Part shown: positions 1 to 29,846 of the stretch, one piece after another | How positions within the stretch are numbered: the first letter of the stretch is position 1 | How the letters are laid out: each line of letters begins with the position of its first letter | Assembly (NCBI GenBank): GCA_965655895.1 | Contig: CBFHID010000002.1 | Location: forward strand, 6,339-70,338 | Reading direction: 5' to 3' | Length of the DNA: 64,000 nt | Source of the DNA: Candidatus Pelagibacteraceae bacterium | GTDB lineage: Bacteria > Pseudomonadota > Alphaproteobacteria > Pelagibacterales > Pelagibacteraceae | Program-made: the position numbers and the translations under genes | Notes under the pieces: model-generated | Database searches by the model: none | Told to the model about the DNA's origin: nothing | Seen by the model: only the letters and a program-made list of their open reading frames with translations

Positions 1-1406
1 TCTTTCACTCCAGATTTTAATATTTTTTTAGGTATTGGAAGGTAACCAGCTTCTGGCATTCCATAAACTGTCTTAGGGCCAATATTTTTTAAAACTAAAA
101 TATCATCTTTTGATATATTTAAATTGGGATCATCAATTTTTTTAGTCATTTCTTTTATATCCTCAAATACAAAAGCTTTACCAGTTTTTTCAAATAGCTT
201 TTTATCTGCAGCTGACCTTTTAAGTATTGCTCCTTTTGGACAAATATTACCAAATAAAGAAACTAAGCCACCTTGTTTTTCAAAAGGTTTATTTTTGGTT
301 CTAATTACATCTTTATCATGAAAGCAATTTGAATTTTCTTTAATAACTGAACTTAATTTTTTGCCTTCAATGTTATATGTTTCTTTTTTAAGTAAACTTT
401 GTAATTCCTTTAGTACAACTTTCATCGCTCCAGCATGATAAAAATCTTCCATGTAATAACTACCGGTCGGTTTTAAATTTACAAGAACTGGAGTTTTGTT
501 GCTTATTTGATTAAACTTCTTTAAATCAATTTTAATATTTGCCCTTCCGGCTATAGCTGTCAAATGTACAATGGCATTTGTTGATCCGCCTAAAGCTAAC
601 AATACAACCATAGCATTATAAATATCTTTCTCTGTAATTTTTTTTATTTTTTTAATTTTTTTATTTGCAATTTTTGCTGCTATCTCACCAGTTTGCTCTG
701 CAAGTTTTAACCTTTCAGAATAAACGGCTGGAACGCTTGCCGCATCTGGTAGGCATAAGCCCATAGTTTCAACTAAGCACGCAACCGTACTCGCTGTCCC
801 CATGACAGCACATGTTCCTGAACTTGCAGCTAATTTACCTTCTACTTCCTTAATTTTTTTATCTGATATTTCTCCGCCTCTATATTTTCCCCAATATCTT
901 CTGCAATCTGTGCAAGCACCCAAACGTTCATTTTCATATTTATTTGTAATCATTGGTCCAGCCGGCATTACTACATAAGGTTTTCCAGCAGATATCGCTC
1001 CCATGATCATTGCTGGTAGAGTTTTGTCACATCCACCAAGTAACACAACCACATCCACGGGCTGAGCTCTAATCATTTCTTCTACATCCATAGACATTAG
1101 GTTTCTAAACATCATGCTTGTTGGAGATAGATATACTTCACCTAAAGAAATTACTGGAAAATCAACTCCTAAACAGTTTTGACTTTGAATTCCTCTCTTA
1201 AGTGCCTCAATCATTTCTGGAAAATGTCGATGACAACTATTTAATCCACTTGCAGTATTTACTATTCCCACAATTGGTTTGTTAAGTGAGTCCGTTGTAT
1301 AACCCATTGATCTTGCGAATGAACGTCTTAGATATGATGAAAATTCCTTGTCACCATAATTTGTTAGACTCTTATCTATTCCTTGATCTTTAATTTTTTT
1401 TGCCAT
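1..1406 (-). CDS. IlvD/Edd-family dehydratase (sugar-acid / dihydroxy-acid dehydratase-like); 3' end runs off the window
   Basis: Absent from the supplied ORF track because it has no stop in the window. My translation from the ATG at 1406-1404 reads MAKKIKDQGIDKSLTNYGDKEFSSYLRRSFARSMGYT...PIVGIVNTASGLNSCHRHF...LLGGCDKTLPAMIMG...SSGTCAVMGTASTVACLVE...LALGGSTNAIVHLTAIAG... These are the conserved IlvD/Edd blocks. The start overlaps the upstream stop (TAATG). Confidence 0.85.
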   Translation of the reverse strand, partial: MAKKIKDQGIDKSLTNYGDKEFSSYLRRSFARSMGYTTDSLNKPIVGIVNTASGLNSCHRHFPEMIEALKRGIQSQNCLGVDFPVISLGEVYLSPTSMMFRNLMSMDVEEMIRAQPVDVVVLLGGCDKTLPAMIMGAISAGKPYVVMPAGPMITNKYENERLGACTDCRRYWGKYRGGEISDKKIKEVEGKLAASSGTCAVMGTASTVACLVETMGLCLPDAASVPAVYSERLKLAEQTGEIAAKIANKKIKKIKKITEKDIYNAMVVLLALGGSTNAIVHLTAIAGRANIKIDLKKFNQISNKTPVLVNLKPTGSYYMEDFYHAGAMKVVLKELQSLLKKETYNIEGKKLSSVIKENSNCFHDKDVIRTKNKPFEKQGGLVSLFGNICPKGAILKRSAADKKLFEKTGKAFVFEDIKEMTKKIDDPNLNISKDDILVLKNIGPKTVYGMPEAGYLPIPKKILKSGVK

Positions 1407-2842
1407 TAATAAATTTTAAACTTTGTGTATTTGGGAACTAGGTAATCTAATATTCCTAATGATCCACCTTCTCTACCAAACCCTGATTCTTTCACTCCTC
1501 CAAAAGGTATTTCAGCAGATGCTAACAACATATCATTAACACCGACCATACCCACTTCTAGATTTTCTGATGCTACATGAGCTCTTTTTAATGAAGAGGT
1601 AAAAACATAACCTGCTAGGCCAAAATCTGTACTATTTGCCATTTCAAAAATTTTACTTTCATCAGTAACTTTTATAATAGGTGCCACAGGTCCAAAAGGC
1701 TCAACAGTTAAAATATTTGCGTTCTCTGGAACATTTTTTAAAACAGTTGGTTCATAAAAAAAACCTTTATTAAATTTTTTACTAGGAGATCCTCCAGTTA
1801 AAATGTCAGCGCCTTTTTTTTCTGCGTCCCTAACTAATTTGTCAATATGATCCAATCCTCTCTTATTAGCTAAAGGACCAACATTACTATCTGGATCGAA
1901 TCCATTTCCTAGTTTTAATTTTTTTGTGTTTGCTGTAAATTTTTCACAAAATTCATCATAAATTTTTTCCTGAACATAAAAACGTGTAGGCGAAATACAT
2001 ACTTGACCGCAATTTCTAAATTTAGTGTTTGAGCAAGTAGTAGCGGCGTAATCTACATCTGTATCATCATAAACTAAAACTGGAGCATGACCTCCAAGTT
2101 CCATTGAAACTTTCTTGATACCCTCTGCTGCCATTTTTAAAATTTCTTTACCAACTTCTACAGAACCAGTAAGAGAAACTTTTTTGATTATAGGAGATTG
2201 AATTAAATATTTCGAAATAAAACTAGATTTTCCAGTAACAAAGTTAACAACCCCTTCTGGTATACCTGCGTCTTGGCAAGCTTTAATTATTTCCATGCAA
2301 GTTCCTGGAGTTTCACTGGCAGGTTTAATAATGATTGAACAGCCAGCTGCAATAGAGGCCGCAATTTTTCTTGCAGGTAGTAAAGCTGGGAAATTCCAAG
2401 CACTAAATGCAGCTACAACACCAACAGGCTCATACCTAACTTGTAAACGAGTATCTTGTGTTCTAGATTCAATTAATTGACCATAAATTCTTTTTGTTTC
2501 TTCAGAATACCATTCAAACTGATCAGCGGAAGCTAGAGTTTCTCCTTTTGCCTCAGCTAGCGGCTTCCCAGTTTCAAGCGTCATTGTGTTTGCAATTTGA
2601 TCTACTCGCTCTCTAATTAAATCTGCAGTTTTTTTGATAATTTTGGATCTTTCCCAGGGAGAAGTTTTTTTCCATGTATCCATTGCTTTTTTTGCAGACA
2701 ATAAAGCTTCATCTAGCTCTTTTTCAGTTGATGATGGAATTAATCCTAATACTTCTTCATTAAAAGGATTAAATACTTCAACTTTATCTTGAGTGGAATT
2801 TGACCACTTTCCATTAATAAAATTTCCTAAATTTTCGTACAT
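1406..2842 (-). CDS. NAD(P)+-dependent aldehyde dehydrogenase (GabD / 2-oxoglutarate-semialdehyde dehydrogenase-like)
   Basis: 478 aa. ALDH superfamily blocks FSAWNFPALL, VSMELGGHAPVLV (catalytic Glu context) and FRNCGQVCISPTRFYV (catalytic Cys context). The substrate cannot be assigned. Confidence 0.9.
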   Translation of the reverse strand: MYENLGNFINGKWSNSTQDKVEVFNPFNEEVLGLIPSSTEKELDEALLSAKKAMDTWKKTSPWERSKIIKKTADLIRERVDQIANTMTLETGKPLAEAKGETLASADQFEWYSEETKRIYGQLIESRTQDTRLQVRYEPVGVVAAFSAWNFPALLPARKIAASIAAGCSIIIKPASETPGTCMEIIKACQDAGIPEGVVNFVTGKSSFISKYLIQSPIIKKVSLTGSVEVGKEILKMAAEGIKKVSMELGGHAPVLVYDDTDVDYAATTCSNTKFRNCGQVCISPTRFYVQEKIYDEFCEKFTANTKKLKLGNGFDPDSNVGPLANKRGLDHIDKLVRDAEKKGADILTGGSPSKKFNKGFFYEPTVLKNVPENANILTVEPFGPVAPIIKVTDESKIFEMANSTDFGLAGYVFTSSLKRAHVASENLEVGMVGVNDMLLASAEIPFGGVKESGFGREGGSLGILDYLVPKYTKFKIY

Positions 2843-2860
2843 TTCAACCCTTTCTATAAT

Positions 2861-4744
2861 TTATATTTTTTGTTTAGCGTATTCTGATTGAACATTCTCA
2901 CACCAGTTACCTACATTCCAAGAGCCATATGCTCCCATACCACCTAGCTCGTCTGTTCCACTGTAAACTGGTACATGCACCACAGACAAACCTTTATATT
3001 TAAAAGCTTCTTCTAATGTATTTTTAAAATCTTTTGAATTGTAGCCTCCAAAAAAACCTTTAACTCCTTTTACTGAGTTCGCCATTTGAACATAATCAAC
3101 CTCTACACCATCATTGGTTTTAAATTCCTTGTCATATTGAGCGTATTGTAATCCAGTAATGGCTGCCATTCTTCTATTATCAAAAATTACCACCATCCCT
3201 TTTAAACCAAGGTAAACAGCATCGATTAATACCTGTGGATTCATCATAAAAGATCCATCACCAGTAAAGCTAATAGGATATTTAGGCTTATCAGCTATAG
3301 CTGAAGCTAGAATAGCGCTTGATGAAAAGCCCATATATGATGCTCCTGTTTCAGTAAAAGTATCAAAAGGATCCTGGTCTTCTGCAATTTGAAAACCATT
3401 CGCCTGAACATCTCCGGCATCAAAAAATTTTACACATTTATTTTTATTTGAAAAATCAACAGCTAACTTGATAGCAGCAGGCTGTGTTAGAACATCTCTA
3501 CCGAACGCTTCATCCTTAAGAACCTCGTTTGTATAAATTCTATTCTTAAAATCAGACCACTCTTTCTTCTTTTTTCTACAATCTTCAATCCAGCTTTGCT
3601 TTGTATTAGATCTGTTAATTTTCTTAGTCTCGATTGCTGTATTTAATTGATTTAATATAACTCCAATGTCACCATTTAATCCAAGAGTATTATTGTAATG
3701 CATCATATCGGCTAGATCGGCATTGATATTAATGACTGCTTCAGCATTTGGATACCCTATGCCTGAACAATCAGATTGACAGACAGATCGAGATCCAATG
3801 GAAATTAATAGTTTAGCATTCTGCATGGCAAAATTTCCAGAAATTGAACCTTTGCTTCCACCAACATGCATATTGTTTTCATGAACATCAGGCAAAACAC
3901 CTAGGCTACCTGGAGCTAGAACTACAGGTACATTAAGATGTTCAGAAAATTTAGTAAGTTCTTTTGAAAATTTAATACTTCCACCACCGGCTTTAACAAC
4001 AATATTATCATATTTATTTATTAATTTTTCAAATTCTTTAATTTGATCTACATTTAAATTATTTTTAACCTCCAAACTGTCTTTGCCAGGTAGAGTTAAT
4101 AGATTTAAACCTTTAATTATTTTTGGCTGAGTATTAATTGGTAGCATAAAATAAAAAGGTCCAGCTTTATAAGGGTGTTTAGTTTTGAGATACCCTTTTC
4201 TCATCCCATCTCTTATAGACTCAGGGGTATGAAAAACATGAGACTCGGACATTAACGCAGTTATTTTTCCATAGATATCTTGTTCTCTTTTGGGAACTTG
4301 CTGCATATTATAACCTTCACCATATGTCGTCTCATCTCCATATATATGATAAAGCCCCACCCCGTTTGAAGAAGCTGCCAAAGAACCTGCCATCGCTTGC
4401 AAGGCTCCTGGACCAATAGAAGTGACAACCGCTGAAACCTCATCATATTGCCATCTCAATGCTGTTGCAGCGTGGGCCATTTCAACTTCATTTCTAAAAT
4501 TATAAGTTTTGGTAACTCCTTGTTCTTCATAAATTCTTAATATTTCTGCAAAATCAGTTGATCCATGTCCAAAAATTGCAAAATACTTTCTTACATTTTG
4601 TTTTAATAAACCAAGGATAATTCCCTCGGACAGAGAAACATCTATATTATTTGGTAATACATTTTTATCGATACATTGATTTAAATCATTATTATTTTTT
4701 GCAATAATTTTTGCTCTCTGCTCAACTGCTTTTAATGAAGTCAT
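2861..4744 (-). CDS. Thiamine-diphosphate enzyme, IolD-like (3D-(3,5/4)-trihydroxycyclohexane-1,2-dione hydrolase family)
   Basis: 627 aa. Blocks AIFGHGSTDF, NEVEMAHAATALRW, TSIGPGALQAMAGSLAA, TPP-binding FTGDGSFMMNPQVL...VIFDNRRMAAI, and the C-terminal tail GSWNVGNW. These fit my recollection of B. subtilis IolD better than Xsc or acetolactate synthase. Confidence 0.7.
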   Translation of the reverse strand: MTSLKAVEQRAKIIAKNNNDLNQCIDKNVLPNNIDVSLSEGIILGLLKQNVRKYFAIFGHGSTDFAEILRIYEEQGVTKTYNFRNEVEMAHAATALRWQYDEVSAVVTSIGPGALQAMAGSLAASSNGVGLYHIYGDETTYGEGYNMQQVPKREQDIYGKITALMSESHVFHTPESIRDGMRKGYLKTKHPYKAGPFYFMLPINTQPKIIKGLNLLTLPGKDSLEVKNNLNVDQIKEFEKLINKYDNIVVKAGGGSIKFSKELTKFSEHLNVPVVLAPGSLGVLPDVHENNMHVGGSKGSISGNFAMQNAKLLISIGSRSVCQSDCSGIGYPNAEAVININADLADMMHYNNTLGLNGDIGVILNQLNTAIETKKINRSNTKQSWIEDCRKKKKEWSDFKNRIYTNEVLKDEAFGRDVLTQPAAIKLAVDFSNKNKCVKFFDAGDVQANGFQIAEDQDPFDTFTETGASYMGFSSSAILASAIADKPKYPISFTGDGSFMMNPQVLIDAVYLGLKGMVVIFDNRRMAAITGLQYAQYDKEFKTNDGVEVDYVQMANSVKGVKGFFGGYNSKDFKNTLEEAFKYKGLSVVHVPVYSGTDELGGMGAYGSWNVGNWCENVQSEYAKQKI

Positions 4745-6267
4745 AACTGTGCCTGCTCCTTAAGTTTTTTTTGTTTTTTTACATCTAACATTCTTTTTCT
4801 AATTTGAAGGGCTATTGTTAAAATAATTAATGAAAAAAACATTAAACTAACAATAGAACTAAAAAATATTGTTGGATCGCCTGCAGACAGTGACATAGCG
4901 GTTCTATATTCACTTTCAATCGTTTTGCCCAAAACCATTCCTAAGACTATTGGGGTAACCGGTAATTGGATACGATTAAAAAAATATCCAATTAGACCCA
5001 TCAGTATCATGACGTTAACGTCTAAAAAAGAATTACGAATTGCATAAGACCCAACTATAACCATTACCAATATACCAACGCCTAAATGATGGGGTTTTAC
5101 TTTTAAAATTTTAACAATGTGTTTAATAAAATTAACCTGAAATATAAAAACAACTATATAGGCAATTAAAATAGCTAGATAAATTGAGTATACTTGAGGG
5201 GCATTTTCAATGAAAAGCATTGGTCCAGGAGACAAACCATGTATTAACAAACCACCTAAAATAATTGCAGTCGCAGGGTCACCTGGAATTCCTAATGATA
5301 ATAAGGGCACCATTGCACCACCAGTTACTGCATTATTTGCAGTTTCAGGTGCTACCACGCCTCCTATATGCCCTTTGCCATACATTTCTTTTTCTTCTGG
5401 ATTTTTTTCAGAATTTTTTGCATGCGAATATGCTAAAAAGGCTGCGATAGGTCCTCCGGAACCAGGGATAGCTCCGATAGAGGTTCCTAAACCAACGCAT
5501 CTTAACATTAAATTAAAATATTTTTTTAAAAGTGAAAAACTTGGCAATTTTGTTTTGACAATATCTACATCAAAATTAGTTTTATCTTCCTTATTTAATC
5601 TAAAATGAAATACCTCTAGAATATGCGGAACAGCAAACAATCCTATCATTGCCACTAGCAAATTAACTCCTTGCAACATTTGAGTATTATCAAATGTAAA
5701 ACGTGAAATACCCTCTATTTCATCCGTACCAATTGTCATTAACATCAGTCCAAGTACTCCTGCAACTAAACCTCTAAACAAAGATCTTTCGGAAAGACCA
5801 CAGATTGTTGAAAACCCAAATAGCACAAGCATAAAAATTTCAGCAGGTCCAAATTTAATTGCAAATTGTGAAATAAAATCAACCAAGACAATCATAATAA
5901 CTAAACTTACAAAACCACCAATTGTTGAAACAATAACAGCAGTGCCAAGTGCAATGCTAGCATCACCTTTTTTTGTTAATGCATAACCATCTGCAACTGT
6001 TGCAGCTGCTGAAGGGGTTCCTGGTATACCAATTAAAATTGCTGAGATAGAGCCACCTGTCATACCTCCAATATAAGTTGCTAATAACAGTGAAATTCCA
6101 GTTACAGGCTCCATCGTAAATGTAAATGGCAACATCAAAGCCAAAGCCATTGAATAAGTTAGACCTGGAATTGCTCCAAAAATAATACCAGCGAATGAAC
6201 CAATCGCAATTGCAATCATAACTTCATAGGTTCCAATTAAACCAAGTGCTGTAATTAAATTTTCCAT
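4741..6267 (-). CDS. tctA: Tripartite tricarboxylate transporter large permease TctA
   Basis: 508 aa polytopic Gly/Ala/Ile-rich membrane protein of typical TctA size. It directly follows the tctC and tctB homologues and overlaps the next gene by 4 nt. Confidence 0.88.
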   Translation of the reverse strand: MENLITALGLIGTYEVMIAIAIGSFAGIIFGAIPGLTYSMALALMLPFTFTMEPVTGISLLLATYIGGMTGGSISAILIGIPGTPSAAATVADGYALTKKGDASIALGTAVIVSTIGGFVSLVIMIVLVDFISQFAIKFGPAEIFMLVLFGFSTICGLSERSLFRGLVAGVLGLMLMTIGTDEIEGISRFTFDNTQMLQGVNLLVAMIGLFAVPHILEVFHFRLNKEDKTNFDVDIVKTKLPSFSLLKKYFNLMLRCVGLGTSIGAIPGSGGPIAAFLAYSHAKNSEKNPEEKEMYGKGHIGGVVAPETANNAVTGGAMVPLLSLGIPGDPATAIILGGLLIHGLSPGPMLFIENAPQVYSIYLAILIAYIVVFIFQVNFIKHIVKILKVKPHHLGVGILVMVIVGSYAIRNSFLDVNVMILMGLIGYFFNRIQLPVTPIVLGMVLGKTIESEYRTAMSLSAGDPTIFFSSIVSLMFFSLIILTIALQIRKRMLDVKKQKKLKEQAQL

Positions 6268-6734
6268 TAAAAAAGCTCACCTCTTGGTAAAGAAGATTTT
6301 AAAAGAATGATAAATATAAAATAAATCATTCCAGTAATTGTTACTGGAAATAAAAAATTTAACTTCCAGCTTTTTTCATTCAGTAAAAATCTAGTAATAA
6401 AAAAAACAATTATTGGTGTAGAAATTAAAAAACCAAAATATCTTAACAAGTATGAATAAGAGACAAAAACAACTATACAAAAAAAAATATTTCTAAATTC
6501 ATTTTTTTGTAAAGGTTCAGCTTTATTTTTTGGAACATAACCAACTTTATATTGATATAAAAAAACCATTCCTAAAATACTCATGCATATCCCTAAAAAA
6601 AGTGGAATTGTTCTTGGAGTGTTTGCAAAGCTACCAAGATCACCCTCTATTTGTAAAAAAACTAAAACTAACCAAATGAGTGAGAAAGCAAGAACACCTA
6701 AACCGAGGTATAGATAAAACTTGCTTTCTCTCAT
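6267..6734 (-). CDS. tctB: Tripartite tricarboxylate transporter small membrane subunit TctB
   Basis: 155 aa with about 4 TM helices, lying between tctC and tctA with a 1-nt overlap. The call rests on size, topology and position. Confidence 0.7.
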   Translation of the reverse strand: MRESKFYLYLGLGVLAFSLIWLVLVFLQIEGDLGSFANTPRTIPLFLGICMSILGMVFLYQYKVGYVPKNKAEPLQKNEFRNIFFCIVVFVSYSYLLRYFGFLISTPIIVFFITRFLLNEKSWKLNFLFPVTITGMIYFIFIILLKSSLPRGELF

Positions 6735-6742
6735 TTGAAAAT

Positions 6743-7720
6743 TTATTTAGCTTTTTTTGCTAAACCAAGATCTTTCATAAGTTTCTTGATTTTTTTATCG
6801 TCCTTAGCAATTTGCTTACCAAAATCTTTAGAATTTAAGTAATTAATTGTAAAACCGATTTTTTGAGATGCAGCTTTAAATTCTGCACTCTTTGCATAAG
6901 CTTCAGCTGCTTTTTCTAAAGCTGCAATTTGAGCTTTAGGAGTTCCTTTTTTAGCTGCTAAACCTCTCCACATAGTTACATCAACTTTTTTGTAACCAAG
7001 TTCCTTCATTGTAGGAATGCTAGAGTCTGAAGCAATTCTTTCCTGACTAGTAACAGCTAACATTTTTAACTGTCCAGCTTTATGGAAAGATCTAAATTGA
7101 CCAGGCCATTGAACAGCCGCATCAATTCTTCCAGCTAAAAGTTCTGCAGGTGCTTTACCTTTTCCATAAGGAATATAAGTAACTTTAGCGCCTAAAGCAT
7201 CAAAGATAATAGCAGATGTAAGGTGTGTAAACGCACCTTTACCACTGATACCAACTTTTAATTTTCCAGGGTTCTTTTTTGCGTAATCAGCTAAGTCTTT
7301 TATAGAGTTAAAAGTTCCTGATTTCACAGCAAGTACTGGTACTTCAATTGACATTGCTGCAATTGGAGTGAATGCTTTATAATTGAATGCAGTTCTACCT
7401 CTATAGTGAGATGTGCTCACAGAGTTAGAATTCCAAACAATATCATATCCAGATGCAGGTCTAGATTGAATATATTTATATCCAACAGCTCCTCCACCAC
7501 CTGGTCTAGAAACTGGTACAACAGCTCCACCTAGTTCTTTTTCAAGACCTTGTGCAACTAATTGACCAACGCTTTTTGCAGTTCCACCAAATAAAACAGT
7601 CATTTCGATAGTTTTACTTGGAAACTTTGAATGGCTTCCTGCAAATGAATTTGTAGAAGCGCCTGCGAACAATAATGTAATCGCTGCTAACGCACCTACA
7701 ATTTTTTTTGTTATTTTCAT
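6743..7720 (-). CDS. tctC: TTT periplasmic substrate-binding protein (TctC/Bug family)
   Basis: 325 aa. Signal peptide MKITKKIVGALAAITLLFAGAS, Bug-type PGGGGAVGY block, and a strong SD (AGGGGG) 4-5 nt before the ATG. Confidence 0.9.
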   Translation of the reverse strand: MKITKKIVGALAAITLLFAGASTNSFAGSHSKFPSKTIEMTVLFGGTAKSVGQLVAQGLEKELGGAVVPVSRPGGGGAVGYKYIQSRPASGYDIVWNSNSVSTSHYRGRTAFNYKAFTPIAAMSIEVPVLAVKSGTFNSIKDLADYAKKNPGKLKVGISGKGAFTHLTSAIIFDALGAKVTYIPYGKGKAPAELLAGRIDAAVQWPGQFRSFHKAGQLKMLAVTSQERIASDSSIPTMKELGYKKVDVTMWRGLAAKKGTPKAQIAALEKAAEAYAKSAEFKAASQKIGFTINYLNSKDFGKQIAKDDKKIKKLMKDLGLAKKAK

Positions 7721-7764
7721 TTTTCCCCCTTGTGTTTAGTGCAAATCATTTAATAATTTTTTTA

Positions 7765-8781
7765 TTAATTGATATTGCGACTTCCGTTTTGTTTTTTCTC
7801 CTTAAGAGCATTTAAAATTTTTTCTGGTGTTGCCGGTAATGACTTAATCCTCACTCCAATGGCATCATAAATAGCGTTCATGATTGCAGGAGAAGTTGGC
7901 ACCATAGCTGGCTCACCTATTCCTTTAGCTCCTAAAGGACTTAGAGGATCTGGATCCTCAACAATTTTTGATGTAACTTTTGGAACATCTAAAGAAGTTG
8001 GTAAAATATATTTTGCAAAACTTCCTGATTTTGTTCTTCCTTTATCTAACTCATAATTTTCCATTAAAGCTTGTCCTACAGCCTGAACAACACCGCCCTC
8101 AATTTGTCCCTCAACACCTTTTGGGTTAATTGCTTTTCCAACATCATGACAAGCCCAAATACCTAAAAGTTGAACTTCACCAGTTGCAGTATCAACCTCA
8201 ACTTCTGCCACTTGACCACCAAACACATATGCTTGCCAAGGTCGTCCTGAGCCATCAACTGGATCTAAGCCAGTATGATGAGAAGTATAATTTTCACCAG
8301 CTACAGGAATAACGCCATATTTTTTTTTGCAAATATGGATAGCTTCACTCATTTCCATTTTGTAATTTGTTCCTTCGCTCCATATTTCACCATTGTGAGC
8401 TTTAATAGTGTTTGCATCGACTTTCCATTCTTTAGCCATTACATCAAATAACTTTTGTCTTGCTCCTCGACAGGCTAACGCAACTGCGTTACCAATCATG
8501 TAAGTTTGTCTTGTGGCACCTGCGTGTGCAGCCTCTGGACTTCTTGAGGTATCGTTTTCACCAATCATCACGTTTTCAGGTTTAACTCCTAATTCATCTG
8601 CAGCTACCTGAGCTAAAACAGTTAAAATGCCCTCTCCAATTTCAGTAACACCAGTAGATATCTTTGCTGATCCACCATCGTCAATTTCTGCCCATGCACC
8701 AGCTTGATCCATTGCAGCAGTTCTAGCTATACCGTACCAAGACGCAGCTATTCCTCTTCCTCTTTTTTTTGTTAAACTCAT
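7765..8781 (-). CDS. XDH/aldehyde-oxidase family molybdopterin-binding subunit, C-terminal part (separate 'M'-type subunit)
   Basis: 338 aa. Blocks KKRGRGIAASWYG, GATRQTYM and GIGEPAMVPTSPAIMNAIYDAIG (the catalytic-Glu block of XDH/CoxL large subunits). The start overlaps the upstream stop as ATGA. Confidence 0.85.
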   Translation of the reverse strand: MSLTKKRGRGIAASWYGIARTAAMDQAGAWAEIDDGGSAKISTGVTEIGEGILTVLAQVAADELGVKPENVMIGENDTSRSPEAAHAGATRQTYMIGNAVALACRGARQKLFDVMAKEWKVDANTIKAHNGEIWSEGTNYKMEMSEAIHICKKKYGVIPVAGENYTSHHTGLDPVDGSGRPWQAYVFGGQVAEVEVDTATGEVQLLGIWACHDVGKAINPKGVEGQIEGGVVQAVGQALMENYELDKGRTKSGSFAKYILPTSLDVPKVTSKIVEDPDPLSPLGAKGIGEPAMVPTSPAIMNAIYDAIGVRIKSLPATPEKILNALKEKKQNGSRNIN

Positions 8782-10661
8782 CTTATTGCCCTCTTGCCAT
8801 TTCCATTTGTTTTTAATCTAGCTCCAAGTTCACAAGCGTCTCTATTATCTTTGCTAAAAGTATCTTTTCTTGAATTACCTCTTGATTGAGGTGAGCCTTT
8901 TTCCCAGCTTGCTAATTTTTCTAATTCATTAAGAACAGTATTAATGCTTGCTGAATTTAATTCTTGTTTAGTATGAGTTAAATTTCCTTTTACAAAAGCA
9001 TTAATTCTTCTAATTTCAAAAGGATCCATATTTAGTTTCTCTGCCGCAATATCTAACATGGACTCAGTTGCAAATTCAGTTTGTAAAGCGCCGAAACTTC
9101 TAAATGCACCGCTAGGAGTATTATTGGTATAAACTCCACGAGTATCCATTTTTAAATTTTCAATATTATATGGACCAGCTCCTAAAATAGCTGCCTTTCT
9201 CATCACACCTTCAGTTGAACAACCATACGCTCCGCCGTCTGCTAACATACTAATCTCTACTGCAAGAATTTTTCCTTCTTTAGTTAAACCCATTTTATAT
9301 TTAGTTCGACTTGGATGTCTTTTGGCTGTTGAGACAATGTCTTCTTCTCTAGTCATTACATATTTAATTGGCTGTCTTGTTTTAGTTGCTAGCAAGGCTA
9401 ACATTCCTTGGTAAATCATATCCTCTTTACCGCCAAAACCTCCACCAACTGGTGACATGATGAAACGTACTTTATGAATTGGAAGATTCATAATTTTTGC
9501 CATCATATGTCTGTGGTGAGTAATATTTTGACTTGGAGAAACAATTGTTAAAACTCCATCTTGATCAACATAAGAAACTCCAGCCATTGGTTCTAGATAG
9601 GCATGCTCAACAGGCTGAGTTGAAAACTCATCTTCAATAATTAAATCAGATTTTTTAAATGCTTCTTCAGTATTTCCTTTTCTAATTGGAATATGTTTTA
9701 CTAAATTCGTTTTATAATGTTCGTGAATTAAAATTTTTTCCTTTAAAGCTTCTTCTGGATCGTAAAGAGCTGGAAGATCCTTGTATTTAATTTTAATTGC
9801 ATTTACAGCATCCTTCGCTTGCTCCAAAGTATCGGCTGCAACTGCAACTATTGCTTCACCAACATATCTAACTTTATCTTTTGCTAATACAGGTTGGTCT
9901 TCAATAAATACTCCAAAATTATCAACTCCTGGAACATCATCGCATGTTACAATTCCTCTTACACCTTCTATTTTTTTTGCTTTTGATAAATCAATACTTA
10001 ATATTTTTGCATGAGGCCTATCGCTTCTTAATACCTGCATATGAAGCATGTTTGGCATCTTCATATCCGCAGCATATTTTAATCTTCCAGTAACTTTGCT
10101 TGGGGCATCAATTCTTTTAACGTTCGCACCAATAAAAGAGTTTGCTGGTTTCTCATACTCATCAAAAACCTTTTCGGGCTTTTCTTTATTAATTACATCC
10201 CTTGCCATTTCAACTGCATCAAAGATTTTTTGGTAACCAGTGCATCTACAAATGTTACCTCCCATTTCCTCTTTGATTTGCTCAATGTTAGCCTTTGGAT
10301 TATTTCTCAAAGTTGATGTTGCAGCCATCACCATTCCTGGAATACAAAATCCACACTGACTAGCGCCAGTAGCACAAAATGCTTTTTGGATTTCTGACAT
10401 TTTTTCGGGGTTTCCCATGCCTTCAACGGTCTCTATTTTTGCTCCATCAGCTTTTGCAGCTGGGACAAGGCAACTCTTAACTAATTTTCCATTAATAAAA
10501 ACAGAGCATGTTCCGCACTCACCAGCTCCGCACCCTTCCTTGGTACCAGTTAAATCTAAATCCTCTCTTAGAAAATCTAATAATCGGTAATGAGATTGTG
10601 TTGATTTTTTAATTTTTTTCCCATTTACTACTAAATTTAACTCCATATTAGGCATGTACAC
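8778..10661 (-). CDS. Fusion of a [2Fe-2S] small subunit with the N-terminal half of an XDH-family molybdopterin-binding subunit
   Basis: 627 aa. Two [2Fe-2S] modules (CGAGECGTC..C, then CGFCIPG...CRCTGY) are followed by the a/b-hammerhead and first Mo-binding domain (IGANVKRIDAPSKVTGRLKYAADM...). An alternative start at ATG 10646 (MELNLVVNGK) would remove the 14-nt overlap. Confidence 0.85.
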   Translation of the reverse strand: MYMPNMELNLVVNGKKIKKSTQSHYRLLDFLREDLDLTGTKEGCGAGECGTCSVFINGKLVKSCLVPAAKADGAKIETVEGMGNPEKMSEIQKAFCATGASQCGFCIPGMVMAATSTLRNNPKANIEQIKEEMGGNICRCTGYQKIFDAVEMARDVINKEKPEKVFDEYEKPANSFIGANVKRIDAPSKVTGRLKYAADMKMPNMLHMQVLRSDRPHAKILSIDLSKAKKIEGVRGIVTCDDVPGVDNFGVFIEDQPVLAKDKVRYVGEAIVAVAADTLEQAKDAVNAIKIKYKDLPALYDPEEALKEKILIHEHYKTNLVKHIPIRKGNTEEAFKKSDLIIEDEFSTQPVEHAYLEPMAGVSYVDQDGVLTIVSPSQNITHHRHMMAKIMNLPIHKVRFIMSPVGGGFGGKEDMIYQGMLALLATKTRQPIKYVMTREEDIVSTAKRHPSRTKYKMGLTKEGKILAVEISMLADGGAYGCSTEGVMRKAAILGAGPYNIENLKMDTRGVYTNNTPSGAFRSFGALQTEFATESMLDIAAEKLNMDPFEIRRINAFVKGNLTHTKQELNSASINTVLNELEKLASWEKGSPQSRGNSRKDTFSKDNRDACELGARLKTNGNGKRAIR

Positions 10662-11577
10662 TCTCCATTTCTAGTTCTACTTTATTGTCAAATTTTTGTA
10701 TTACTTCTTCAACATTATTTTTTCCTAAAGATTTTAAAATTGATCGAATAATAAAATTTTGCAAAACTTCTTTTCTATATTCTCTTCGTGATCTTGATTG
10801 AATAACATCTAAATCCAACATGGATGCTGCATAAATATTATTTTCATCAATAGATTTACCTTTTAAAAACTTCTCAGTTTTAGTTAATCTTGTTGGAACC
10901 TCACAAACACCTCCAACTGCAATTCTTACATCTTGAAATTTATTTTTATTTAATTTAACCAATGAAGAAACACACACGGTTGAAATTACTAAAGATCTTC
11001 TATGTCCAACTTTTTCAAAACATGCTCCATAACCATCTGTATTTTCAACTTCTAAATCCACTAATAGATCGTTATTCTTAAGGGCAACTTTGTTTCGGCC
11101 TTTTACAAATTTTTCTAAAGGCATTTTTTGTTTAATAATTTTTTTATTTTTCAAAGAGGCAACTGTAACTTTTGTATTTAAAGTTAAAAATGCCGGCATA
11201 CCATCTCCTGCAGGGGAAGCATTAACAATATTACCGCCAATGGTAGCGAGTTCCCTAATTTGATCATCTGCGAACCATACTGAAACTTGGGGTAAAACTT
11301 TTAAACTTTTCCTAATTTTTTTATCTAAAAAAAGCTTTTGATAATTTATTGCAGCTCCTAGTAAAACTTTTTTTGAGCCAAATTTAAATACATTAAGCTC
11401 TTTAATTCTACTCACATCGACTACATTTTTTAAAAATACATCGCCACCACGACCTTCTCTTGCCCATGGAAGGATATCGGTACACCCTGCTACGATACGA
11501 CAATCTTTAATCTTTGAAGTTAAATCAAAGTATTCTTTGAGTGTCTTTGGAATAAAATAATTGTCGTATCTAAGCAT
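10648..11577 (-). CDS. XDH-family FAD-binding (medium, CoxM/NdhF-like) subunit
   Basis: 309 aa with the IVAGCTDILPW and ATIGGNIVNASPAGD motifs of FAD-binding molybdopterin dehydrogenase subunits. Confidence 0.85.
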   Translation of the reverse strand: MLRYDNYFIPKTLKEYFDLTSKIKDCRIVAGCTDILPWAREGRGGDVFLKNVVDVSRIKELNVFKFGSKKVLLGAAINYQKLFLDKKIRKSLKVLPQVSVWFADDQIRELATIGGNIVNASPAGDGMPAFLTLNTKVTVASLKNKKIIKQKMPLEKFVKGRNKVALKNNDLLVDLEVENTDGYGACFEKVGHRRSLVISTVCVSSLVKLNKNKFQDVRIAVGGVCEVPTRLTKTEKFLKGKSIDENNIYAASMLDLDVIQSRSRREYRKEVLQNFIIRSILKSLGKNNVEEVIQKFDNKVELEMESVHA

Positions 11578-11583
11578 AAATTA

Positions 11584-12717
11584 CTAAGCTAATCTTTGAT
11601 CGTTTCTAACTACAACCTTGATTGCGTCTTCGATCCTTTCTTTGGTATACTTCAATCCAGTTTCCAAATCTTTCATTGGAAAAGTATGGGTATGAATCAA
11701 CTTTGCATCGAATCTTTTTTGAGCCATTAAAGCCATAGCTCTATGACATGCAGATTTACCTTCTCCGCGCGTTGCAAAAATATATGCGTTATTTCTAACT
11801 AAGTTTGCTATATCAACGGTTACTGGTTTTGATGGAAAAGCAGCTAAACCGATTTTACCACCTCTTCTAATCATTGAAGATGCGTCGTTAATTGCATTTT
11901 CTGCACCTGAGCATTCCAGGACATAATGTGCTCCAACTCCACCCGTTAACTCTTTTACTTTTTTTACTGCGTCTTCGTTTCTCACATTTATTACGTGAGA
12001 TGCACCGAGTTTTTTTCCTATTTCCAATCTATTATCTCTAGTACCTGTTAAAATAACTTCAGCACCAAGTGAACTAGCTACTCCAACTGCGCATAAACCG
12101 ATTGGTCCTGGTCCTGTAATAACTATAGTTTGACCGGCATATAAACCACCCATCACATCTAAAGTGTACATACTGGTACCTGCGGTTACACACAATGTTG
12201 CTTCTTCATCAGACATGTCATCAGGAACTTTAACTAATGTTTGAGTTCGATTTGTCATATACTCTGCAAAGGCACCGTCTGTCGTAAAACCATTAGCTTT
12301 ATGTCCTCTGTCAGTATAGCTATAATTTAAACAAGAAGTGTACCAACCTTTTCTACACATTTCACATCTACTACAACCTGCATGAATTTCTACACAAACT
12401 CTATCACCAGGTTTAAATTCGTGAACACCTTCTCCTAACTTCACCACTGTACCCATTGCTTCATGGCCAAAAGTAAAATCTTTATTAAAAGGTAACTCTC
12501 CATTTATCATTGCAGGTAAACCGTGAGACATAATTTCTAAATCAGTTGCACATATTGCTACTGCATCAATTTTTAAAAGAACCTCACCTTCTTTTGGTTC
12601 TGGTATAGGTTTTTTCTTTATTGAAATATTATTAGGATCATTCAGTACCCAAGCACCCATTTCCTTTGGTATTTCAAATTTTTGGTTGTGACCCATCATA
12701 CTCTCATCACGCGGCAT
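11584..12717 (-). CDS. Zn-dependent medium-chain alcohol/polyol dehydrogenase
   Basis: I moved the start to ATG 12717 (MPRDESMMGHN...) because AAGGAG lies 7 nt upstream. Motifs: AVAICATDLE, GHEAMGTV, the Cys cluster CSRCEMCRKG and the Rossmann block ITGPGPIGL. Confidence 0.85.
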   Translation of the reverse strand: MPRDESMMGHNQKFEIPKEMGAWVLNDPNNISIKKKPIPEPKEGEVLLKIDAVAICATDLEIMSHGLPAMINGELPFNKDFTFGHEAMGTVVKLGEGVHEFKPGDRVCVEIHAGCSRCEMCRKGWYTSCLNYSYTDRGHKANGFTTDGAFAEYMTNRTQTLVKVPDDMSDEEATLCVTAGTSMYTLDVMGGLYAGQTIVITGPGPIGLCAVGVASSLGAEVILTGTRDNRLEIGKKLGASHVINVRNEDAVKKVKELTGGVGAHYVLECSGAENAINDASSMIRRGGKIGLAAFPSKPVTVDIANLVRNNAYIFATRGEGKSACHRAMALMAQKRFDAKLIHTHTFPMKDLETGLKYTKERIEDAIKVVVRNDQRLA

Positions 12718-13501
12718 GTTTATCTCCTTTTTTTCTAGTTTTTTTAAAGTATTTTCCAATTTCAAGGGCAGAAAATTTCACAGAATTTTTAATTTTTTCT
12801 AAATATTTTTTATCAGTTATTATTTTAAATTTTGGAGACGAACAGCTAATAGAAGCAAAAGGTCTTTGCTCATCATCAAAAATAGGATAGCCAACACAAA
12901 AAACACCTGGCTGAAACTCTTCATCATCAGTAGCAAATCCATTTTTTTTAATTTTTTTTAATTCATTAGTCAAAAGATTAATATTCGTAATTGTATGATT
13001 GGTAAATTTCTCTAATTTTGCTTTTAAGATTTTTTTTTGACTTACTTCACTCATATAAGCTAACATCGCTTTACCTGATGCCGTTGCATGAAATGCATTA
13101 TCTTTGTTTAAGAAACCATGGTCAACTCTAACTGGATGGACAGACTCTAGCATACTTAAAGTTATTAGTTTTGTTCCTTCAAATGAAGCAAGGTGAACAG
13201 CTTCGCCAGTAGTATCATTAATTTTTTTAATAAAAGGTTCAGCAAAATTTATAAAAGAGTTTGCATTTAAATCTATAACTTCGCCAAACTTCTTTAATTT
13301 AGATCCAAGAAAATATTTTTTTGATTTTAAATCTTGATACAAATAACCTTGATCACATATAGTTGATAGCATGTGATGAGCAGCAGATTTTTTAAACCCT
13401 AAATGATCACATATTTCTTTTAGACTAATTCCTTTTCTAGAATCAGACTCCAAAAAATAATCCAAAGTATTTAAAGTTTTAGATATAGATTTAACCGACA
13501 T
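12707..13501 (-). CDS. IclR-family transcriptional regulator
   Basis: 264 aa. N-terminal winged HTH (LKEICDHLGFKKSAAHHMLSTI) plus an IclR-type effector domain. It is the first gene of the operon. Confidence 0.9.
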   Translation of the reverse strand: MSVKSISKTLNTLDYFLESDSRKGISLKEICDHLGFKKSAAHHMLSTICDQGYLYQDLKSKKYFLGSKLKKFGEVIDLNANSFINFAEPFIKKINDTTGEAVHLASFEGTKLITLSMLESVHPVRVDHGFLNKDNAFHATASGKAMLAYMSEVSQKKILKAKLEKFTNHTITNINLLTNELKKIKKNGFATDDEEFQPGVFCVGYPIFDDEQRPFASISCSSPKFKIITDKKYLEKIKNSVKFSALEIGKYFKKTRKKGDKHAA

Positions 13502-13507
13502 GCAAAC

Positions 13508-13560
13508 AAAATAAGTAGAGATCTACAGTTTGTCAATGATAAATATAAGTTTATTATTGA
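13508..13560 (-). promoter_or_regulatory. Candidate sigma70-type promoter (TTGACA-17-TATTTT) giving a leaderless or near-leaderless iclR mRNA, with an overlapping imperfect inverted repeat
   Basis: On the minus strand, TTGACA (13536-13531), a 17-nt spacer and TATTTT (13513-13508) are followed by 6 nt and then the ATG. The inverted repeat TCAATGATAAA-N6-TTTATTATTGA (13533-13560) matches 10 of 11 positions per arm. Found by pattern only. Confidence 0.3.
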
Positions 13561-13634
13561 TGAACATTAAAGTTTGTTAATAAAAAACTTAAATTCACAA
13601 TAAATAAATGAAAAAAAATAAACCAACGGTTGTA

Positions 13635-14468
13635 TTAAAAATTTAAAAATTCAATAAATGCGCGAATTGAAATAACTATTAAAAAAATACCAAATATCTT
13701 ACTTAATAAATCTTTATTAATAGAATGTACAAGTCTTGCCCCAATGGGTGCCATAGTCATAGTAACTGGCACAAAGACTAGAAAACCAGGAATGTTTACA
13801 TATCCAATAGATAATGGTGCGGAAAAATTTGAAAACATAAATCCGCTAAATGCCATTGATGATGCTCCAAAAATTGAAATAATAAAGCCAATTGCTGCAG
13901 ATGTACCAATTGCTTCTCTAATTGGGTATCCAAATAATCTCATGAAGGGGACCCCTAAAGACCCTCCCCCAATTCCAAGGGGTACGGACATAAAACCCAT
14001 AAACAAACCTGTTAAGCTTTTAATTAGAGGTCCAACATTTTTTGGTTTTTCTCCCATTTTTTCTCTAATGAAAATAAAGAATAGACCAACGCAGAATGAG
14101 AAAATTGAAAATATCAATAATAGTTGAATAGTTTTTAATTGGGTTGCCATAAAAGTTCCAATAAAAATTCCAATCACAACAGAAATACCAAAAGATTTAA
14201 TTAAATTAAAATTTACAGCTTTAAATTTATAATGGGTTTTAGCAGACATAATCGAAGTGGGTATTATAATTGCTAAAGATGTTCCTAAAGATAAATGCAT
14301 AATAATATTTGGGTCAAACTCTAAAATTGAAAAGGCATAATATAAAGCAGGCACCATTAAAATTCCTCCACCCACTCCTAAAAGTCCAGCAATAAAACCT
14401 GATGCCGTTGCTGCAATAGCTAAAACGATCATCAAGGTAGCTAACTGGTTAAAATCTAAACTTACCAA
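13635..14468 (-). CDS. TSUP/TauE-SafE family anion (sulfite/sulfonate-type) exporter
   Basis: 277 aa with about 8 TM helices. The two halves carry GGGILMVPAL and GIGGGSLGVPF motifs typical of DUF81/TauE. Confidence 0.8.
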   Translation of the reverse strand: MVSLDFNQLATLMIVLAIAATASGFIAGLLGVGGGILMVPALYYAFSILEFDPNIIMHLSLGTSLAIIIPTSIMSAKTHYKFKAVNFNLIKSFGISVVIGIFIGTFMATQLKTIQLLLIFSIFSFCVGLFFIFIREKMGEKPKNVGPLIKSLTGLFMGFMSVPLGIGGGSLGVPFMRLFGYPIREAIGTSAAIGFIISIFGASSMAFSGFMFSNFSAPLSIGYVNIPGFLVFVPVTMTMAPIGARLVHSINKDLLSKIFGIFLIVISIRAFIEFLNF

Positions 14469-16750: not shown

Positions 16751-16754
16751 TTAA

Positions 16755-18607: not shown

Positions 18608-18615
18608 AAATAAAA

Positions 18616-18641
18616 AACCCTAGGCAATTAAGCCTAGGGTT
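18616..18641 (-). terminator. GC-rich intercistronic hairpin (AACCCTAGGC-N6-GCCTAGGGTT) followed by a T-run, between dctP and dctQ
   Basis: A perfect 10-bp stem. On the minus strand it is followed by TTTTTTATTT and then the dctQ ATG. It looks like a partial terminator or mRNA-stabilising element that would raise the ratio of binding protein to permease. Confidence 0.5.
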
Positions 18642-18655
18642 AATTTGTATTATTT

Positions 18656-19669: not shown

Positions 19670-19732
19670 TAGTTTTCCCCCTGTTAGTTAAATTATTGGC
19701 TATTAGACTATATTTTGATATCAAGATCAACA

Positions 19733-29707: not shown

Positions 29708-29723
29708 TAGGCCTCCCTTCTTT

Positions 29724-29750: not shown

Positions 29751-29846
29751 AAACTTCAAAACCCTGTTCATTAGAGATCTCGACAAGATTTTTAGCGTTC
29801 TTAAATTGCGGTATATATTGGCTGTCATTATTATCAACCTTTTTAA

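Follow-up and report, generated by a model that had tools for sequence, protein, structure and literature searches.

A conserved eleven-gene operon of SAR11 subclade IIIa built around a thiamine diphosphate enzyme family sister to IolD, with a possible role in organic acid catabolism

The stretch of DNA considered here (the window) comprises 64,000 nucleotides of contig CBFHID010000002.1 of a Candidatus Pelagibacteraceae bacterium, with a G+C content of about 33%. It holds a genuine, tightly packed operon of eleven genes, all on the minus strand and running in one direction from 13501 to 1 (Table 1). The genes specify an IclR-family regulator, a zinc-dependent alcohol dehydrogenase (Zn-ADH), a molybdoenzyme of the xanthine dehydrogenase (XDH) family encoded in three genes (hereafter the Mo enzyme), a tripartite tricarboxylate transporter (TTT), an enzyme dependent on thiamine diphosphate (ThDP), an aldehyde dehydrogenase (ALDH) and an IlvD/Edd-family dehydratase. 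An earlier reading of the sequence (the original prediction) had named all these families, and Pfam agrees for every one. The three TTT parts are adjacent, each scoring above its Pfam gathering threshold. The listing of open reading frames (ORFs) gives ten complete frames and one truncated at the window start; as had been supposed, this last gene leaves the window, and its complete 569-aa product is encoded on contig L001 from the same population. The eleven-gene architecture originally proposed agrees with the ORF listing and with synteny in unrelated lineages, described below.

Table 1. Genes of the operon and the region upstream of it, in window positions
Feature	Position	Strand	Basis
Promoter/operator region (133 nt)	13502-13634	-	-35 box, -10 box, palindrome
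IclR-family transcriptional regulator, 264 aa	12707-13501	-	Pfam HTH_IclR + IclR_C
Zn-dependent medium-chain dehydrogenase (Zn-ADH), 377 aa from the ATG at 12717; member of the feeder module (see text)	11584-12717	-	Pfam ADH_N + ADH_zinc_N
FAD-binding subunit of the XDH-family molybdoenzyme, 309 aa	10648-11577	-	Pfam FAD_binding_5 + CO_deh_flav_C
2Fe-2S subunit fused to the N-terminal half of the Mo subunit (a/b hammerhead + MoCoBD_1), 625-627 aa	8778-10655/10661	-	Pfam
C-terminal half of the Mo subunit, MoCoBD_2, 338 aa	7765-8781	-	End-to-end alignment with NdhM
TctC periplasmic binding protein, 325 aa	6743-7720	-	Pfam TctC, 140 bits
TctB small membrane subunit, 155 aa	6267-6734	-	Pfam TctB, 62 bits
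TctA large permease, 508 aa	4741-6267	-	Pfam TctA, 460 bits
ThDP-dependent enzyme, 627 aa	2861-4744	-	All three TPP_enzyme Pfam domains
NAD(P)-dependent aldehyde dehydrogenase (ALDH) of the succinic semialdehyde (SSADH), α-ketoglutaric semialdehyde (KGSADH) and sulfolactaldehyde dehydrogenase clade, 478 aa	1406-2842	-	NCBIfam and PDB matches
IlvD/Edd-family dehydratase, N-terminal 468 aa inside the window	1-1406	-	NCBIfam and PDB matches

In gene order, the junctions measure -11, +6, -8 (-14 from a GTG start), -4 (ATGA), +44, +8, -1, -4 (ATGA), +18, and -1 nt, and so span the range of -14 to +44 nt reported originally. The start of the fusion gene is probably the ATG at 10655. The mechanically called Zn-ADH frame begins with a TTG at 12765, and the start used here is the Shine-Dalgarno-preceded ATG that is also called on metagenome contigs. 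The strong Shine-Dalgarno sequences noted originally are present before both Zn-ADH (AAAGGAGATAAAC-ATG) and TctC (AAGGGGGAAAA-ATG). The sole sizeable gap of the operon is the 133 nt upstream of the IclR gene. It contains TTGACA-17-TATTTT at 13536-13508 (-35 box, 13536-13531; -10 box, 13513-13508) and, adjoining the -35 box at about 13567-13548, the palindrome AGTTTAATAATnnTAAACT, of the AGTTTA-N-TAAACT type (AGTTTAATAAT..TAAACT). The hexamer match alone is weak evidence, because promoter-like hexamers are no more numerous than in shuffled sequence (54 observed vs 58 ± 7). The -35 box and the palindrome are kept in the intergenic DNA of Alpha proteobacterium HIMB114, Pelagibacter sp. HIMB109 and more distant SAR11 genomes, as expected of an IclR operator-promoter, and this conservation argues better for a promoter than the hexamers do; the single promoter candidate of the original prediction is retained on that ground. 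An Rfam scan found no riboswitch, neither of the molybdenum cofactor nor of the TPP type.

The ThDP enzyme is 91-92% identical to its counterparts in HIMB114 and HIMB109, and the window therefore belongs to a genome of SAR11 subclade IIIa, in line with the compact host genome surmised originally. Contigs that encode an identical ThDP protein carry the same eleven genes. The same order is found, at about 60% protein identity, in Microbaculum marinisediminis, Telmatospirillum sp. J64-1, a 4.1-Mb alphaproteobacterial metagenome-assembled genome, plasmid pS26_248 of Phaeobacter piscinae, and many others, the lineages represented being Hyphomicrobiales, Rhodospirillales, Rhodobacterales, Betaproteobacteria and SAR324. 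The SAR324 contig keeps the order without the IclR and ALDH genes; it is one of the few loci without IclR, a gene that in each operon variant examined heads most of the loci. Zn-ADH is 60-67% identical in most distant orthologues (55-70% overall) and is nearly always beside the Mo enzyme. A scan of one genome per species found 488 stretches that encode a relative of the ThDP enzyme, and soil, freshwater and marine bacteria in their hundreds carry the operon. The operon had been described as an orphan, a term that does not survive this conservation across classes.

The original view that the set fits no named pathway is borne out: no operon protein scores at or above any NCBIfam equivalog cutoff, and a full-text literature search found no description of the cluster, the genome papers on SAR11 IIIa and LD12 included. 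The best matches of the IclR protein are BhcR (132 bits) and KdgR (114 bits), both far below cutoff. For Zn-ADH they are IolM, scyllo-inosose 3-dehydrogenase (204 bits, cutoff 450), and L-threonine 3-dehydrogenase (203 bits, below cutoff), and in the PDB the protein comes nearest to Tdh, ketose reductase and sorbitol dehydrogenase. TctC is nearest to the solved structure of BugD, an aspartate-binding protein (131 bits). The inositol route, discounted in the original prediction, remains unsupported, since iolB, iolC, iolE, iolJ and a true iolG are found neither in the window operon nor in about 160 related loci; weakly IolG-like or IolO-like accessory genes do occur in some of the related loci.

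By its sequence, the ThDP enzyme can be assigned to a previously uncharacterised family of its own, sister to IolD. Its orthologues are at least 52% identical, and the next relatives, IolD and acetohydroxyacid synthase (AHAS), are at most 28% identical. The plasmids of PLSDB show the same gap: the orthologues lie at 52-57%, and next, at 26% or less, come IolD, AHAS and ThDP proteins without a name. Identity to the IolD of Priestia and Salmonella is 25-29%. The NCBIfam model of IolD (TIGR04377) gives 143.8 bits against a cutoff of 715, and that of AHAS 129 against 538. In a neighbour-joining tree rooted on IlvB, the new family branches as sister to IolD. Alignment shows two motifs that the new family shares with IolD and that are absent from IlvB: FGHG (AIFGHGST; IFGHGNV in IolD) and a C-terminal WNVG (WNVGNW; WNVG or WRVG in IolD). 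The earlier label "IolD-like" is accordingly right as to the tree position and the shared motifs, but the score is too weak for IolD itself.

IolD (3D-(3,5/4)-trihydroxycyclohexane-1,2-dione acylhydrolase) and CDH, the Azoarcus enzyme that acts as a hydrolase on cyclohexane-1,2-dione, both use ThDP to split a C-C bond in a 1,2-dione by hydrolysis, yielding an aldehyde-acid. The window enzyme resembles both in its three-domain decarboxylase-superfamily fold, its catalytic Glu and its GDG...N ThDP motif. The His of FGHG, His60, lies 26 residues before the catalytic Glu86 and thus near standard position 28 of the decarboxylase superfamily, an active-site position occupied in CDH by His28 (PMC3534367, PMC12247030). 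The product expected of such an enzyme, an aldehyde with a carboxylate on the same molecule, suits the SSADH-clade ALDH encoded downstream. Unlike IolD, the new enzyme keeps no company with iolB, iolC, iolE or iolJ and sits beside carboxylate transporters. An AlphaFold model (pLDDT 84, pTM 0.88) has the ordinary decarboxylase-superfamily fold, and a Foldseek search of it against the PDB returned AHAS, HACL, Gcl and OXC without differentiation (TM 0.72-0.77), so that the fold does not discriminate the chemistry. Dicarbonyl cleavage of the IolD/CDH kind would be the leading chemistry for this enzyme, with plain decarboxylation of a 2-oxo acid as the alternative.

The genes that accompany the ThDP enzyme vary. 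Three operon variants share a trunk of IclR, ThDP enzyme, ALDH and IlvD/Edd dehydratase, joined to interchangeable feeder modules of at least three kinds. In variant A, that of the window and most loci, the trunk is combined with TctCBA, Zn-ADH and the Mo enzyme. Variant B, found on a Salipiger plasmid and two marine contigs, has neither ADH nor Mo enzyme and is ordered IclR, ThDP enzyme, β-hydroxyacid dehydrogenase, GlcG-like protein, AP_endonuc_2 isomerase, a tripartite ATP-independent periplasmic (TRAP) transporter, ALDH and IlvD. Its β-hydroxyacid dehydrogenase scores highest with tartronate-semialdehyde reductase (145 bits), then with L-threonate dehydrogenase (137 bits), both far below the cutoffs, and the best match of its isomerase, a weak one, is hydroxypyruvate isomerase. 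Variant C, on Labrenzia and Sinorhizobium plasmids, also lacks ADH and Mo enzyme; a CUT1 sugar-type ATP-binding cassette (ABC) transporter is followed by IclR, a Gfo/Idh/MocA oxidoreductase, ThDP enzyme, ALDH and IlvD. In the tree, the ThDP enzyme of variant B nests inside the diversity of variant A, and that of variant C branches basally with an equal degree of divergence. In one metagenome locus of variant A (contig L151, 61% GC), TctCBA is replaced by an SDF/DctA-type symporter (L151 7498-8889).

The trunk itself is not universal; only the ThDP enzyme is. ALDH and IlvD content was counted in those variant-A loci that have enough downstream sequence, 66 from genomes and 46 from metagenomes, the latter among the matches listed. 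Both genes are present in 29 of the 66 genome loci and 2 of the 46 metagenome loci, IlvD only in 6 and none, ALDH only in 3 and 2, and neither in 28 and 42, respectively. The two genes are thus optional, about half of the loci being without them. Soil lineages insert in their stead a lactonase-like gene of the metallo-β-lactamase (MBL) fold, a Gfo/Idh/MocA gene with an α/β-hydrolase gene, or an AP_endonuc_2 or RidA gene. The β-hydroxyacid dehydrogenase genes found downstream of the ThDP gene in soil contigs lie 2-8 kb away, have about 30% identity, and were not counted as linked. The variants and the patchy occurrence of ALDH and IlvD therefore suggest that the ThDP enzyme is the universal hub, that Zn-ADH and Mo enzyme, nearly always together, form one feeder among several, and that the product of the hub can be handled by either dedicated or housekeeping enzymes. 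The original prediction had made Mo-dependent hydroxylation a core step; obligatory it cannot be, since orthologous ThDP-ALDH-IlvD clusters fed by TRAP or sugar ABC transporters lack ADH and Mo enzyme altogether.

Where the ALDH is present, its probable substrate can be described in general terms. It scores 522.6 bits with the NCBIfam SSADH model (TIGR01780; cutoff 646) and 288 bits with SafD, and its PDB matches are GabD (421 bits), KGSADH (411 bits) and the Rhizobium leguminosarum sulfolactaldehyde dehydrogenase 8c54 (374 bits). The ALDHs of variants A, B and C all keep two Arg positions (in PARK and FRN) which we take to be those that bind the substrate carboxylate in SSADH (Arg213 and Arg334 of human ALDH5A1); because both are kept throughout, the substrate is likely to be a short aldehyde with an anionic group. 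The dehydratase, although truncated in the window, passes the PRK06131 subfamily model (615.7 bits, cutoff 539) and falls short of those of L-arabinonate dehydratase (512 vs 882 bits) and of biosynthetic IlvD (311 vs 618 bits). Its PDB matches are 8ej0 (478 bits) and the L-arabinonate dehydratase 5j84 (447 bits). Dehydration had been placed before oxidation in the original prediction. The gene order ThDP-ALDH-IlvD and the Arg pair of the ALDH suggest instead cleavage, then oxidation, then dehydration. In one genome an RraA-like class II aldolase gene follows IlvD, which would fit a 4-hydroxy-2-oxo-diacid product. In distant lineages (L026, L029, L037, L080, L096), the Phaeobacter plasmid among them, the genes of the proton-translocating transhydrogenase PntAB come directly after IlvD, an adjacency that points to an imbalance of NADH and NADPH arising in the pathway. 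The Phaeobacter plasmid also carries, further downstream, a maturation gene of the XdhC family.

The Mo enzyme is closest to the nicotinate dehydrogenase (NDH) of Eubacterium barkeri (NdhF/S/L/M; PDB 3HRD), which is the best-scoring solved relative of both halves of its Mo domain. The MoCoBD_2 subunit aligns end to end with NdhM (234 bits, its best PDB match), and the 2Fe-2S/Mo fusion matches NdhL (325 bits) and the Desulfovibrio gigas aldehyde oxidoreductase (329 bits). In both the operon enzyme and NDH the Mo subunit is divided at the same point into L and M parts, an FAD subunit and 2Fe-2S domains are present, and Tyr13M is kept. Unlike in NDH, the 2Fe-2S module of the operon enzyme is fused to the L part, as in the D. 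gigas enzyme. A selenium dependence of the operon enzyme is unlikely in the aerobic SAR11.

The pocket was mapped on the numbering of bovine XDH, with residue roles from the literature (PMC5746545). The equivalents of XDH Glu802 (in GGGFGGKED) and Arg880 (in AFRSFG) are invariant in seven distant orthologues, and Phe914 is replaced by an invariant Thr. In the motif WYGIARTA, Tyr16, at the position of XDH Phe1005 and NDH Tyr13M, is invariant in ten orthologues, and Arg20, at the position of Phe1009, in ten distant orthologues; the Thr equivalent to Thr1010 is kept, as is the catalytic Glu (Glu1261) in GEP. Where the operon enzyme has Glu and Arg at XDH positions 802 and 1009, the E. barkeri enzyme has Leu and Asn. 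Tyr13M was modelled to bind the ring nitrogen of nicotinate, and XDH Glu802 is never conserved in eukaryotic aldehyde oxidases (PMC5746545). The pocket would thus be polar and cationic and suited to a small anionic substrate, for which a heterocyclic acid and an aldehyde-acid are indistinguishable by sequence. In three SAR11 contigs otherwise 98-100% identical to the window (L002-L004), the FAD subunit is only 89-90% and the FeS-Mo1 fusion 94% identical (8778-11577), and the flanking ADH and Mo2 are 99-100% identical; the pattern looks like a local tract of recombination or allelic replacement inside the molybdoenzyme genes.

Two familiar enzymes of the family were considered and rejected. For xanthine dehydrogenase (XdhABC or PucCDE), all models fall below cutoff, with Phe914 changed to Thr and Phe1009 to the invariant Arg. 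For aerobic CO dehydrogenase (CODH; CoxSML), the active-site loop reads GAFRSFGALQ without the Cys of form I (AYxCSFR), and CO_dehy_Mo_lg gives 177 bits against 991. With neither the Cys loop nor the purine-stacking Phe residues, the Mo enzyme is therefore neither of the two. This bears on the simplest account of the locus, in which coxSLM or xdhABC, a citrate-type TTT importer, and ilvB-like and ilvD genes for branched-chain amino acids came to lie side by side by chance and serve no dedicated pathway. Putative "coxSLM" genes were indeed reported in HIMB114, together with an "additional divergent PR" (proteorhodopsin) (Grote et al., 2012; PMC3448164), and the ThDP enzyme and dehydratase belong to the superfamilies of IlvB and IlvD. 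Against this, the equivalog cutoffs of CoxL, XDH, AHAS and IlvD are all missed by wide margins, the CODH and XDH hallmarks are missing, neighbouring genes meet or overlap at ATGA and TAATG junctions, and the whole block is syntenic across proteobacterial classes. Because the same eleven-gene order recurs in unrelated lineages, a chance arrangement is disfavored, and we regard this account as effectively refuted. The "coxSLM" genes of HIMB114 are most probably the Mo enzyme of the operon, and its "additional divergent PR" the rhodopsin encoded just downstream.

That rhodopsin gene is seen on contig L001, past the point where the window begins. On that contig IlvD is succeeded, on the same strand, by a hydrophobic ORF of 56 aa and a gene for a 244-aa rhodopsin (L001 15051-15958), with spacers of 2 nt and no convincing terminator, and the arrangement is the same in every SAR11 locus. 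Where proton pumps have RYxDW, the rhodopsin has RYITWLIATP, with Thr for the counter-ion Asp85/Asp97; the retinal-binding Lys is kept (DLFNK).

The likeness to nicotinate dehydrogenase raises the possibility, in line with the route originally proposed, that the substrate is an N-heterocyclic or otherwise nitrogen-containing carboxylate (of the pyridine, pyrimidine, pyrroline or imidazole type). By hydroxylating the carbon beside the nitrogen, the Mo enzyme would yield a lactam, the ADH would make the neighbouring ketone, and the ThDP enzyme would hydrolyse the α-keto-lactam or vicinal dione; the nitrogen would leave spontaneously or stay in an amino-acid product, with ALDH and IlvD completing the chain. 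Besides the scores against NdhL and NdhM, the common split and the Tyr at the position of Tyr13M, this reading would make sense of the invariant Glu802 and Arg880 equivalents, and a carboxylate could be held by the invariant Arg that replaces Phe1009. The nearest structure to TctC binds aspartate, one locus has an SDF symporter, and the RidA-like and RutD-like genes of some lineages belong to families that speed spontaneous steps, which would explain their patchiness. However, no operon variant has a gene for an amidase, amidohydrolase, deaminase, or ring-reducing or ring-oxygenating enzyme, and the purine-stacking Phe914 and Phe1009 are missing. The original prediction had set aside aerobic nicotinate catabolism, and rightly so, as no gene of the Pseudomonas putida nic pathway is present, nor any of the other nicotinate-fermentation genes of E. 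barkeri. Furthermore, IlvD/Edd enzymes require a 2,3-dihydroxy acid, and orthologous ThDP-ALDH-IlvD clusters do without the Mo enzyme behind a TRAP transporter or a sugar-type ABC transporter with Gfo/Idh/MocA. A nitrogen-containing substrate is, on balance, unlikely, though to be taken seriously.

We favor, tentatively and at somewhat less than an even chance, an IclR-controlled catabolic operon for a small nitrogen-free polyhydroxy mono- or dicarboxylate of the sugar-acid or hydroxy-dicarboxylate type. TctCBA, whose transporter family is clear, would import the acid, and the Zn-ADH would oxidise one of its hydroxyl groups. The FAD/2Fe-2S/Mo enzyme may then oxidise or hydroxylate an anionic intermediate in its pocket lined by invariant Arg, Glu and Tyr. 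From its family, motifs and context, the ThDP enzyme would cut the C-C bond beside a carbonyl, by dicarbonyl hydrolysis or decarboxylation, to give a short anionic aldehyde. The SSADH-clade ALDH would turn that aldehyde into a (di)carboxylate, and the dehydratase would convert a 2,3-dihydroxy acid to a 2-oxo acid of the pyruvate, oxaloacetate or 2-oxoglutarate type that enters central metabolism.

A nitrogen-free sugar acid or hydroxy acid is favored because the trunk is shared with the sugar-ABC/Gfo and TRAP/β-hydroxyacid dehydrogenase variants, the dehydratase is of the sugar-acid kind, the accessory genes resemble those of lactonases, IolG and IolO, and at none of the in-operon positions examined is a C-N hydrolase gene seen. 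IolM, IolG and IolO are what the ADH and accessory proteins match best, if weakly, and the genes inserted in soil lineages include lactonase-like MBL and α/β-hydrolase genes. Loci that combine TTT and IclR genes were predicted to serve aldarates and galactonate (PMC5507952).

The locus is also like the non-phosphorylative sugar-acid pathways (of the Weimberg type and for oxidative uronate use), whose enzymes are a Gfo-type aldose dehydrogenase, a lactonase, an IlvD/Edd aldonate dehydratase, KdaD or KdgD and KGSADH, in several respects: the dehydratase is near L-arabinonate dehydratase, the ALDH is as near to the Azospirillum brasilense KGSADH (411 bits) as to GabD, the variant of Labrenzia and Sinorhizobium brings in a Gfo/Idh/MocA oxidoreductase along with a sugar ABC transporter, and soil variants have lactonase-like genes. 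In these pathways, however, a 2-keto-3-deoxy-acid dehydratase of the DHDPS or FAH family (KdaD, KdxD, KdgD) acts between the IlvD-type dehydratase and KGSADH, and none is found in any operon variant, the ThDP enzyme being in its place. We know of no bacterial non-phosphorylative sugar-acid pathway that includes a Mo enzyme. The TRAP variant, with its IclR, ThDP enzyme, β-hydroxyacid dehydrogenase and AP_endonuc_2 isomerase, recalls the allR-gcl-hyi-glxR genes of Escherichia coli (the glyoxylate carboligase route to glycerate) and the LtnD-OtnI module for L-threonate and D-erythronate. Unlike those systems, it has no glycerate kinase, OtnK or OtnC gene, and every match is far below cutoff; the Gcl model is also outside the 25 best NCBIfam matches of the window ThDP enzyme.

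Several points weigh against a nitrogen-free acid. The nearest solved relative of the Mo enzyme is a heterocycle hydroxylase, and the operon enzyme has both the Tyr13M and the XDH Glu802 equivalents. The RidA-like and RutD-like genes of some lineages hint at imine or enamine intermediates, and a DAACS symporter and a BugD-like binding protein would equally suit amino-acid-like substrates. The optional nature of ALDH and IlvD tells against it as well. Finally, the explicit routes written out from hexonate or 5-keto-hexonate, 2-keto-3-deoxygluconate (KDG) or 4-deoxy-L-erythro-5-hexoseulose uronate (DEH), aldarate, tetronate and tartrate each leave at least one enzyme or variant unexplained. Those rejected on this ground were hexonate to 5-keto-hexonate, glycolaldehyde plus tartrate semialdehyde, tartrate and oxaloacetate; KDG or DEH to 5-keto-4-deoxyglucarate, followed by decarboxylation, 2,3-dihydroxyglutarate and 2-oxoglutarate; pentonate to 4-hydroxy-2-oxoglutarate, malate semialdehyde and malate; tetronate to 2-oxo-tetronate, glyceraldehyde, glycerate and pyruvate; and tartrate to oxaloglycolate, tartronate semialdehyde and glycerate. 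A route like that of glyoxylate carboligase was also written out and not adopted, and the sulfolactate and sulfo-Entner-Doudoroff (sulfo-ED) routes fare no better.

The last two belong to an organosulfonate pathway, the remaining reading, in which a carboxy- or hydroxy-sulfonate (sulfolactate or an acid derived from sulfoquinovose) would be decarboxylated or desulfonated by the ThDP enzyme, the ALDH would act on a sulfo-aldehyde, and a TauE/TSUP permease would export sulfite or a sulfonate end product. The parts have precedents: sulfolactate is taken up by a TTT system, SlcHFG, an IlvD/Edd dehydratase and an SSADH-like ALDH work in sulfo-ED, and the ThDP enzymes Xsc and ComDE act on sulfo-carbonyls. 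The ALDH clade includes the sulfolactaldehyde dehydrogenase 8c54, with SafD further off at the score given above. A gene for an anion permease of the TauE family adjoins the operon in three unrelated lineages, namely SAR11 (13635-14468), Telmatospirillum (L010 15344-16129) and the L151 contig (508-1479), where it is divergent from IclR. Most loci have no TauE gene, however, and that of SAR11 abuts the housekeeping gene Dus and may belong to its transcription unit. The 25 NCBIfam models that the ThDP enzyme matches best do not include Xsc, genes for sulfite dehydrogenase and Pta are missing from the vicinity, and the Mo enzyme is of the XDH and not the sulfite-oxidase family. A sulfonate substrate is accordingly very improbable.

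Whichever acid is used, known superfamilies supply the parts, and the combination, the ThDP family and the pocket of the Mo enzyme are undescribed. More broadly, a C-C-cleaving ThDP family and an NDH-like Mo enzyme with a unique Arg/Glu/Tyr pocket could together make up an undescribed global route for oxidising an abundant dissolved organic acid, used by SAR11 IIIa, freshwater SAR11, SAR324 and many soil Alpha- and Betaproteobacteria, and in SAR11 possibly co-transcribed with the rhodopsin that lacks a counter-ion; as a whole this is a rather doubtful proposition, though a possible one. SAR11 genomes are about 1.2-1.3 Mb, and a 13.5-kb operon that needs Mo, FAD, Fe-S and ThDP is costly at that size, implying a substrate of importance in coastal and brackish water. 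As the module also occurs in freshwater SAR11, SAR324, roseobacter plasmids and many soil Hyphomicrobiales, the substrate is probably common in dissolved and soil organic matter. Public annotation of these genes is generic or wrong: the ThDP enzyme is labelled "iolD", and the "coxSLM" of HIMB114 is probably the Mo enzyme. Inositol use or CO oxidation may therefore be miscounted when SAR11 metabolism is reconstructed. Assignment of the pathway would give a function to a new ThDP family and to a new specificity in the XDH family, and cultured carriers exist in HIMB114, HIMB109, Phaeobacter piscinae S26, Telmatospirillum sp. J64-1, Microbaculum marinisediminis, Labrenzia THAF strains and Salipiger CCB-MM3.

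Elsewhere in the window, a cluster resembling malonate-utilisation genes lies directly upstream of the operon (15455-20878). It consists of a malonyl-CoA decarboxylase gene (15455-16750), TRAP genes DctM/Q/P (16755-19669) and a divergent family III CoA-transferase gene (19715-20878), and is beside the operon in no locus outside SAR11. A 445-aa ORF with a GTG start (34892-36229, minus strand) matches nothing in Pfam at E ≤ 1e-4; nearby is a tRNA-Met gene (34205-34281). One ORF (28667-29707) encodes an S-adenosylmethionine decarboxylase domain joined to a spermidine synthase, and around it, over 27870-32398, are polyamine and methionine-salvage genes (CN hydrolase, class II aldolase, IF-2B-like isomerase and PNP-type phosphorylase).

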